Positions 1 to 260 of a stretch of 260 bases of DNA are shown here, one piece after another; position 1 is the stretch's first letter; the number at the start of each line of letters is the position of its first letter. Source of the stretch: a phage; sequence record AH001313.2; one strand, 5' to 3'. Both the position numbers and the translations under genes were made by a program. The notes under the pieces were generated by a model. It worked only from the letters and a program-made list of their open reading frames with translations. It ran no database searches and was not told the origin of the DNA.

Positions 1-4
1 GGGT

Positions 5-24
5 GGGACCCCTTTCGGGGTCCT
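5..24 (+). promoter_or_regulatory. 5'-terminal GC-rich hairpin of the phage RNA (8-bp stem 5-12/17-24, 4-nt loop TTTC at 13-16); may extend to 1-28 using G-U wobbles
   Basis: Direct base pairing seen: c12-g17, c11-g18, c10-g19, c9-g20, a8-t21, g7-c22, g6-c23, g5-t24 (G-U). Possible extension t4-g25, g3-c26, g2-t27, g1-c28. A stable 5' hairpin is an established feature of the MS2 leader. Confidence 0.7.
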
Positions 25-29
25 GCTCA

Positions 30-36
30 ACTTCCT
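30..36 (+). promoter_or_regulatory. Candidate upstream complementary sequence (ACUUCCU) able to pair with the maturation-gene Shine-Dalgarno AGGAGGU by long-distance interaction
   Basis: ACTTCCT is complementary to AGGAGGT with one U-G wobble. MS2 maturation-gene translation is known to be controlled by an upstream complementary sequence pairing with its SD. The SD itself would lie in the masked block, so the pairing cannot be shown here. Confidence 0.3.
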
Positions 37-110
37 GTCGAGCTAATGCCATTTTTAATGTCTTTAGCGAGACGCTACCATGGCTATCGCTGTAGGTAGC
101 CGGAATTCCA

Positions 111-210
111 NNNNNNNNNNNNNNNNNNNNNNNNNNNNNNNNNNNNNNNNNNNNNNNNNNNNNNNNNNNNNNNNNNNNNNNNNNNNNNNNNNNNNNNNNN
201 NNNNNNNNNN
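111..210. other. Run of exactly 100 N: unknown-length gap placeholder, masked region, or variable-insert placeholder; carries no sequence information
   Basis: 100 consecutive ambiguity codes. 100 N is the conventional length for gaps of unknown size in scaffolds. The flanks are the two genome termini, so about 3.4 kb of native sequence is unrepresented. Confidence 0.95.
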
Positions 211-212
211 CC

Positions 213-225
213 CGGGATTCTCCCG
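213..225 (+). other. Small stem-loop in the 3' UTR (4-bp stem c213-g225, g214-c224, g215-c223, g216-c222; 5-nt loop ATTCT)
   Basis: Inverted complementarity CGGG / CCCG seen directly. The stem is short and the functional assignment is uncertain. Confidence 0.3.
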
Positions 226-229
226 ATTT

Positions 230-255
230 GGTAACTAGCTGCTTGGCTAGTTACC
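230..255 (+). promoter_or_regulatory. 3'-terminal hairpin of the phage RNA: perfect 10-bp stem (230-239 GGTAACTAGC / 246-255 GCTAGTTACC) with 6-nt loop TGCTTG
   Basis: Perfect inverted repeat seen directly; the reverse complement of GGTAACTAGC is GCTAGTTACC. It sits just upstream of the single-stranded 3' tail, matching the established 3'-terminal helix of MS2 RNA in the replicase and maturation-protein binding region. Confidence 0.8.
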
Positions 256-260
256 ACCCA
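256..260 (+). promoter_or_regulatory. Single-stranded 3' tail ACCCA: levivirus replicase initiation site (CCC plus terminal untemplated A)
   Basis: The window ends ...ACCACCCA. Levivirus replicases (Qbeta, MS2) initiate minus-strand synthesis at the 3' CCC, with the terminal A added without template. The tail lies outside the 3' hairpin, so it is unpaired. Confidence 0.75.

Follow-up and report, generated by a model that had tools for sequence, protein, structure and literature searches.

Two termini of the phage MS2 genome joined across a run of 100 N: a 260-base record best read as a composite and not as a native locus

Features of the analysed sequence

The whole stretch of DNA that was analysed (hereafter the window) comprises 260 bases, 160 of which are determined: positions 1-110 (5' flank) and 211-260 (3' flank). 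Table 1 lists the elements recognised in both flanks together with the MS2 genes that have no counterpart here.

Table 1 Elements of the window and genes of the missing MS2 interval (window coordinates unless NC_001417.2 is given)
Feature	Position	Strand	Remarks
MS2 genomic RNA nt 1-110 of the 129-nt 5' leader	1..110	+	100% identity; mat CDS starts at 130
5' terminal hairpin	1..28	+	1-12 paired with 17-28; predicted both for the isolated window and for native nt 1-145
Upstream complementary sequence (UCS)	29..36	+	pairs in the native fold with 116-123 (maturation-gene Shine-Dalgarno region)
W arm of the 5'UTR cloverleaf	37..73	+	helices 37-39/71-73, 42-46/64-68, 48/62, 50-53/57-60
S arm of the 5'UTR cloverleaf	74..100	+	helices 74-79/95-100, 80-84/89-93
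Truncated E arm	102..110	+	5' strand, loop and first 3'-strand base (nt 110); native helix 102-106/110-114; nt 111-114 missing
Run of exactly 100 N	111..210	.	placeholder for native nt 111-3519; single N run counted
MS2 genomic RNA nt 3520-3569, last 50 nt of the 171-nt 3' trailer	211..260	+	100% identity; rep ends at 3398
Small penultimate 3'UTR hairpin	213..225	+	predicted; native 3522-3526/3530-3534
Last stem-loop U1	229..256	+	predicted; native 3539-3549/3554-3564, plus one U-A pair in the isolated fold
3' terminal CCCA tail	257..260	+	ACCACCCA invariant in 6/6 aligned phages
mat	130-1311 (NC_001417.2)		absent from the window
cp	1335-1727 (NC_001417.2)		absent from the window
lys	1678-1905 (NC_001417.2)		absent from the window
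rep	1761-3398 (NC_001417.2)		absent from the window

The native interval without counterpart in the window measures 3,409 nt in NC_001417.2 (nt 111-3519). Since all four genes lie in this interval, the window consists of untranslated sequence only. Even the untranslated regions are incomplete: the last 19 nt of the leader (nt 1-129) are absent, including the 3' strand of the E arm and the Shine-Dalgarno sequence, and so are the first 121 nt of the trailer (nt 3399-3569). The list of open reading frames holds a 30-aa frame within the leader and two frames that cross the N block, and no coding content was recognised among them. One ATG is part of the NcoI site, at nt 80; it lies in a leader frame other than that of mat and its frame enters the N block, hence the listed 52-aa reading frame is a purely mechanical product. 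Native complete levivirus genomes span about 3.4-4.2 kb and carry maturation, coat, lysis and replicase genes, and the 260 bases of the window offer neither this length nor any of these genes. In its written form the composite codes for no protein and would be unable to function as a genome, because it has no gene, no ribosome site of the maturation gene, no coat-protein operator, which is located in the missing MS2 interior, and no replicase gene.

Both flanks are identical to the ends of the MS2 genome

When the 5' flank was compared by megablast with a database of 50,697 phage records, 202 records matched, all belonging to the MS2 group. Window positions 1-110 correspond to nt 1-110 of NC_001417.2 with 100% identity and coverage (E = 6e-51; plus strand). 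Sixteen of the 202 records, including NC_001417.2 and V00642.1, are identical to the complete flank, always at record positions 1-110 of the plus strand. At least 80% of the flank was covered in only 25 of the matched MS2-group records. In a search of the same kind the 3' flank was matched by only 15 records; it equals nt 3520-3569 of NC_001417.2, the last 50 bases of the genome, with 100% identity on the plus strand (E = 4e-18), and nine records were identical over the 50 bases, at record positions 3520-3569. A more distant search with this flank also retrieved the full-length genomes of fr, GA, KU1 and BZ13, which match at their last bases and on the same strand.

The exact string of each flank occurs once in the MS2 genome (the 5' flank at position 1, the 3' flank at 3520), and both have the same strand and order as in the reference. 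These matches to the MS2 termini are far beyond chance. Altogether, the identity of the 5' part, the identity of the 3' part including an end in ...ACCACCCA, and the conserved hairpins described below assign the determined bases to the genomic termini of Emesvirus zinderi (MS2).

The initial annotation, made from the letters alone, had described positions 1-110 as the first 110 nt of MS2 and positions 211-260 as the last 50 nt, which turned out to be correct to the base, by 100% identity and unique exact matches. The BLASTN comparison that it proposed placed the flanks at the extreme 5' and the extreme 3' end of MS2 on the same strand, as it had expected. Its figure of roughly 3.4 kb for the native separation agrees with the 3,409 nt measured here, and the maturation, coat, lysis and replicase genes that it located between the termini were indeed found there, as mat, cp, lys and rep within nt 111-3519. 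The determined bases of the window are already known, both flanks being identical to the reference genome termini; the statement that nothing in them indicates a new biological system is thus supported.

Some peculiarities of the database records came up during these comparisons. In the RefSeq record NC_001417.2 the A (maturation) protein is named 'head maturation protease', the coat protein 'head protein' and the lysis protein 'hypothetical protein', product names which do not fit the known roles. LC710217.1 has 39 extra bases before MS2 nt 21 and in LC710218.1 the genome is reversed; both look like unpolished MS2 assemblies.

Predicted folding of the leader and trailer portions

Identity, position, folds and hairpin conservation of the elements come from the present analysis, and the functions assigned to them are those described in the literature. 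The 5' flank folds with -50.4 kcal/mol (z = -5.5 against shuffled controls). Folding of native nt 1-145 reproduced the published cloverleaf, comprising the 5' hairpin, the pairing of the UCS with the Shine-Dalgarno region, and the arms W (37-73), S (74-100) and E (102-114), for which we use the arm names and functions given previously (PMC4615214). The partner of the UCS, nt 116-123, is absent from the window. This long-distance interaction has been described together with a kinetic-trap model (PMC4615214): at equilibrium the cloverleaf hides the ribosome site of the maturation gene, and on nascent plus strands a transient hairpin delays the folding, which leaves a short window for translation. 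Nucleotides 37-45, the 5' side of the W arm, form the 3' half of this transient hairpin that briefly permits translation of the maturation protein (PMC4615214). The complement of the 5'UTR constitutes the 3' domain of the minus strand, which the MS2 replicase needs to start plus-strand synthesis, and the full-length domain works far better than a 43-nt version (PMC6847885).

For the 3' flank a fold of -24.9 kcal/mol was obtained (z = -6.1 against shuffled controls). The maturation protein is in contact with the 3'UTR of MS2, in virions through U1, and the last stem-loop U1 of Qβ in its Mat-bound form is similar to its MS2 counterpart (PMC8880383). The CCCA tail is the initiation site of minus-strand synthesis, copying of the plus strand starting at the 3' terminal CCA (PMC10610835, PMC6847885).

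Between the genome ends, at window positions 1-7 and 254-259, six bases are complementary (GGGUGG with CCACCC). The plus strand has the 3' end AGUUACCACCCA and that of the minus strand GGGGUCCCACCC, the minus strand ending in ...CCCACCC. Because the genome ends are complementary, the 3' ends of the two strands are near-identical (...ACCACCCA and ...CCCACCC). In the predicted native 3'UTR fold, the ACCC of the tail pairs with nt 3447-3450 instead.

According to these published roles, the complement of the 5' terminal hairpin is where the replicase starts on the minus strand. The UCS, the W and S arms and one half of the E arm make up most of the leader, which times translation of the maturation protein by means of a slow-folding cloverleaf. 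The 3' part supplies a small hairpin, U1 as contact of the maturation protein, and the CCCA tail as replicase start on the plus strand.

Conservation of the terminal hairpins in related phages

The flanks were aligned with the genome ends of fr, the MS2-like phage DL52, GA, KU1 and BZ13 DL20. At the 5' end, 9 of the 26 pairs of the consensus fold show changes on both sides, with the 5' hairpin and the S arm retained. The helix of the 5' terminal hairpin is kept with both-side changes in GA and KU1, and the S arm has compensatory pairs in GA, KU1 and BZ13.

At the 3' end, U1 shows compensatory changes from A-U to G-C at two pairs in fr, DL52, GA, KU1 and BZ13, and its helix is 95% paired, as against 18-57% for the whole 3' structure when the 3' partners were slid. 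In place of the small penultimate hairpin the relatives have a hairpin that differs in sequence, with three of five pairs changing on both sides. When the two 3' hairpins were taken together, 89.4% of the cells were paired, versus the same 18-57% with slid 3' partners; five pairs change on both sides, and the covariation score was reached by none of the shuffles. Thus, the terminal hairpins are real and conserved, with modest covariation support from five to six sequences, and their conservation agrees with published phylogenetic and probing work (PMC4615214).

When the whole window was scanned against Rfam at E values up to 10, neither end matched a family; this includes the levivirus leader of PMC4615214.

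The alignment drew attention to FJ483839.1 (BZ13 strain DL20, group II). Its nt 1-84 are 100% identical to DL52 (JQ966307.1) and 97.6% identical to MS2, with an identity of only about 66% to GA and KU1, and the sequence becomes 93-96% GA-like at nt 85. The 5' end of this record is either a natural group I/II recombinant or a sequencing or assembly chimera.

Searches for a molecule with this layout

A pattern search of IMG/VR for the two flanks at a distance of 85-115 nt gave no hit. Exact 29-nt and 32-nt probes from the inner edges of the flanks yielded a single IMG/VR contig, which has the 5' probe and is native full-length MS2 (nt 7-3546; 11 mismatches). Neither the 5' probe nor a 29-nt 3' probe occurred in genome contigs or metagenome contigs. 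Both flanks were without match in the plasmid collection, and the 5' flank was without match in complete E. coli genomes; the results in plasmids and E. coli genomes thus give no hint that a cassette was cloned or that a copy resides in a chromosome.

We further compared the window with the sequences of two published termini-containing MS2 RNAs, MSRP-22 and [F30-Bro(+)]UTR(+), taken from the supplement of PMC8956599. MSRP-22 is a small RNA that appeared spontaneously when reconstituted MS2 replicase was taken through serial transfers, and the enzyme amplifies it specifically; in its sequence MS2 nt 1-118 are followed by nt 3464-3568 (PMC8956599). It resembles the window in being made of the two MS2 ends, which adjoin directly in MSRP-22, and in containing equivalents of both flanks. 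It differs by one additional U at the 5' end, an inserted G, three substitutions among the last 50 nt and a C in place of the terminal A. As source of the window MSRP-22 is ruled out both by spacing (64 versus 100 nt between the flanks) and by sequence (one insertion, three substitutions), and the window shows neither the 64-nt spacing nor the characteristic mutations of an MSRP-22-type replicon.

Cargo-carrying templates of the UTR[cargo] and MSRP-22 designs resemble the window in placing a payload between MS2 ends, and their wild-type flanks are identical to it over 110 + 49 nt. [F30-Bro(+)]UTR(+) differs from the window in its full UTRs, its total length of 410 nt, the 251 nt between flank equivalents, the upstream T7 promoter and the lack of the terminal A; its spacing of 251 instead of 100 nt rules it out as a source.

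Segment boundaries and the N run

The segment lengths of 110, 100 and 50 are all multiples of ten. The window extends from nt 1 of the genome to its last nucleotide, including the terminal A, and carries no promoter, T7 promoter or vector bases. With an N run of exactly 100 and flanks that lie 3,409 nt apart in every full genome examined, it has the properties of a placeholder gap.

Both inner boundaries cut through predicted native helices. The cut between nt 110 and 111 bisects the E arm (102-106/110-114) and splits the pairing of the UCS with the Shine-Dalgarno region (29-36/116-123); the one between nt 3519 and 3520 breaks the helices 3459-3463/3517-3521 and 3447-3450/3565-3568. Since predicted helices are bisected on both sides, the boundaries of the window follow no structural or functional logic.

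In the records, a precedent for the N run exists in the same species. AH009279.2, of phage JP501, has exactly 100 N at 2050-2149 between separately sequenced pieces. Because separate pieces are joined in this way, a run of 100 N can serve as a spacer that conveys no real length. JP501 and the window share the species, the first 110 nt and the spacer of exactly 100 N; the JP501 pieces differ in being 2,049 and 580 nt of coding sequence instead of two termini, and there is no match to the 3' end.

We also observed restriction sites near the inner edges. CCCGGG, the only SmaI/XmaI site of MS2 (nt 3520), forms the exact start of the 3' segment (window 211-216). An EcoRI site, GAATTC, lies at 103-108, two nucleotides after which the 5' segment ends; MS2 has a second EcoRI site at nt 1628. 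A unique NcoI site is present at 78 (window 78-83). With SmaI and EcoRI sites so close to the inner boundaries, the cuts might reflect a cloning strategy and not round numbers, a hint that is indistinguishable from chance.

Discussion

The initial annotation had interpreted the window as a collapsed or masked composite of two MS2 termini, as opposed to a native locus. This interpretation is borne out by the identity of both flanks to the genome ends and by the pattern search of IMG/VR, which gave no pair of flanks spaced by about 100 nt; the only environmental contig obtained is a full-length native genome. The window is read here as a deliberate or database composite, because the cuts are round and pass through helices, the exact termini are present without vector sequence, and a 100-N spacer has a precedent in the same species. 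It would thereby be an artificial excerpt of the MS2 (Emesvirus zinderi) reference, with 110 bases from its start, 50 from its end and 100 N in place of the 3,409 bases between them, and would not represent a contiguous molecule. As for the origin of the N block, we infer that it probably stems from deliberate in-silico construction or masking. The initial annotation had likewise taken the round segment lengths as favouring construction or masking; among its three options, this one fits best, in line with cuts that bisect helices and with the 100-N precedent.

In INSDC and NCBI records, gaps whose length is unknown are written as 100 N. A different history, which we consider possible though rather unlikely, is that the two termini were determined separately, for instance by 5'/3' RACE or as parts of an old segmented GenBank set, and were then joined by the conventional spacer, the length of the gap being unknown. 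The segmented JP501 record, with its spacer of precisely this size, speaks for such a history, but the segment lengths in multiples of ten and the reference-identical flanks that reach the exact termini speak against it. Shotgun assembly would oddly have produced end contigs of 110 and 50 nt without the well-covered interior, and most deposited MS2 sequences lack the ends. Since the termini are recovered less often than any other part (see the 25 of 202 records above), we regard a draft assembly of an MS2 spike-in or control, as suggested in the initial annotation, as unlikely; it is the least likely of the three options raised there. The engineered terminal cassette that it named as another option has real precedents, which it did not mention, since cargo has been placed between MS2 UTRs (PMC6847885; PMC8956599, Supplementary Data 4) and inside MSRP-22-based replicons (PMC11197098), and a scaffold written out with the N run as payload slot, meant to be transcribed and then copied by the MS2 replicase, would be in keeping with the native EcoRI and SmaI sites near both inner boundaries. 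The geometry, however, is unfit. The arms of published designs are either the complete leader and trailer (129 or 124 nt, and 181 nt) or terminal hairpins of 43 nt, as opposed to 110 and 50 nt here (PMC6847885), the spacing in [F30-Bro(+)]UTR(+) is far larger, and the cuts at 110 and 3520 break helices; with arms of this size, cuts inside helices and mismatched spacing, the window does not group with the UTR[cargo] templates. Moreover, the replicase makes poor use of templates reduced to the terminal hairpins, and synthetic plus strands that carried both UTRs in full were not copied to minus strands (PMC6847885). Neither a T7 promoter nor vector bases occur in the window and the plasmid collection gave no match, and we hold a written-out cassette to be improbable.

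That termini-only MS2 RNAs exist at all, as exemplified by MSRP-22 and the UTR scaffolds, is the reason for retaining a small probability for a physical molecule. The window would then represent an actual RNA of about 260 nt that contains only MS2 termini, a defective RNA or a parasite of the replicase comparable to MSRP-22, and its central 100 bases would have been left undetermined or masked at their true length. The flanks are subsets of the two parts of MSRP-22, which is compatible with this idea. On the other hand, MSRP-22 measures 226 nt, and with 64 nt between the flank equivalents a 100-nt core needs about 36 extra bases whose origin is unaccounted for. The extra G in the 5' flank and the three substitutions in the 3' flank of MSRP-22 are missing from the window, the segment lengths are round, and no such contig occurred in any collection searched (IMG/VR, genome contigs, metagenome contigs). 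A real RNA of this kind thus seems very improbable. We give just as little credence to the window being a second, independent termini-only template of the MS2 replicase, different from MSRP-22 and arisen either as a defective RNA in nature or as a parasite in the laboratory; nothing here indicates that it is a termini-only replicating molecule. If a true molecule of this layout existed, it would bear on the poorly defined template requirements of the MS2 replicase, as MSRP-22 replicates.

Taken as the in-silico composite that we favour, the window has little biological weight: its determined bases are the ends, known from textbooks, of a genome that is among the best studied, and they are joined by a placeholder. 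For a genome scan, a composite or masked sequence, a database gap and a cassette design all have the same upshot, namely that there is no native locus here. Composites of known genomes joined by N should not be read as loci, and the practical value of the present case is that of a filter.
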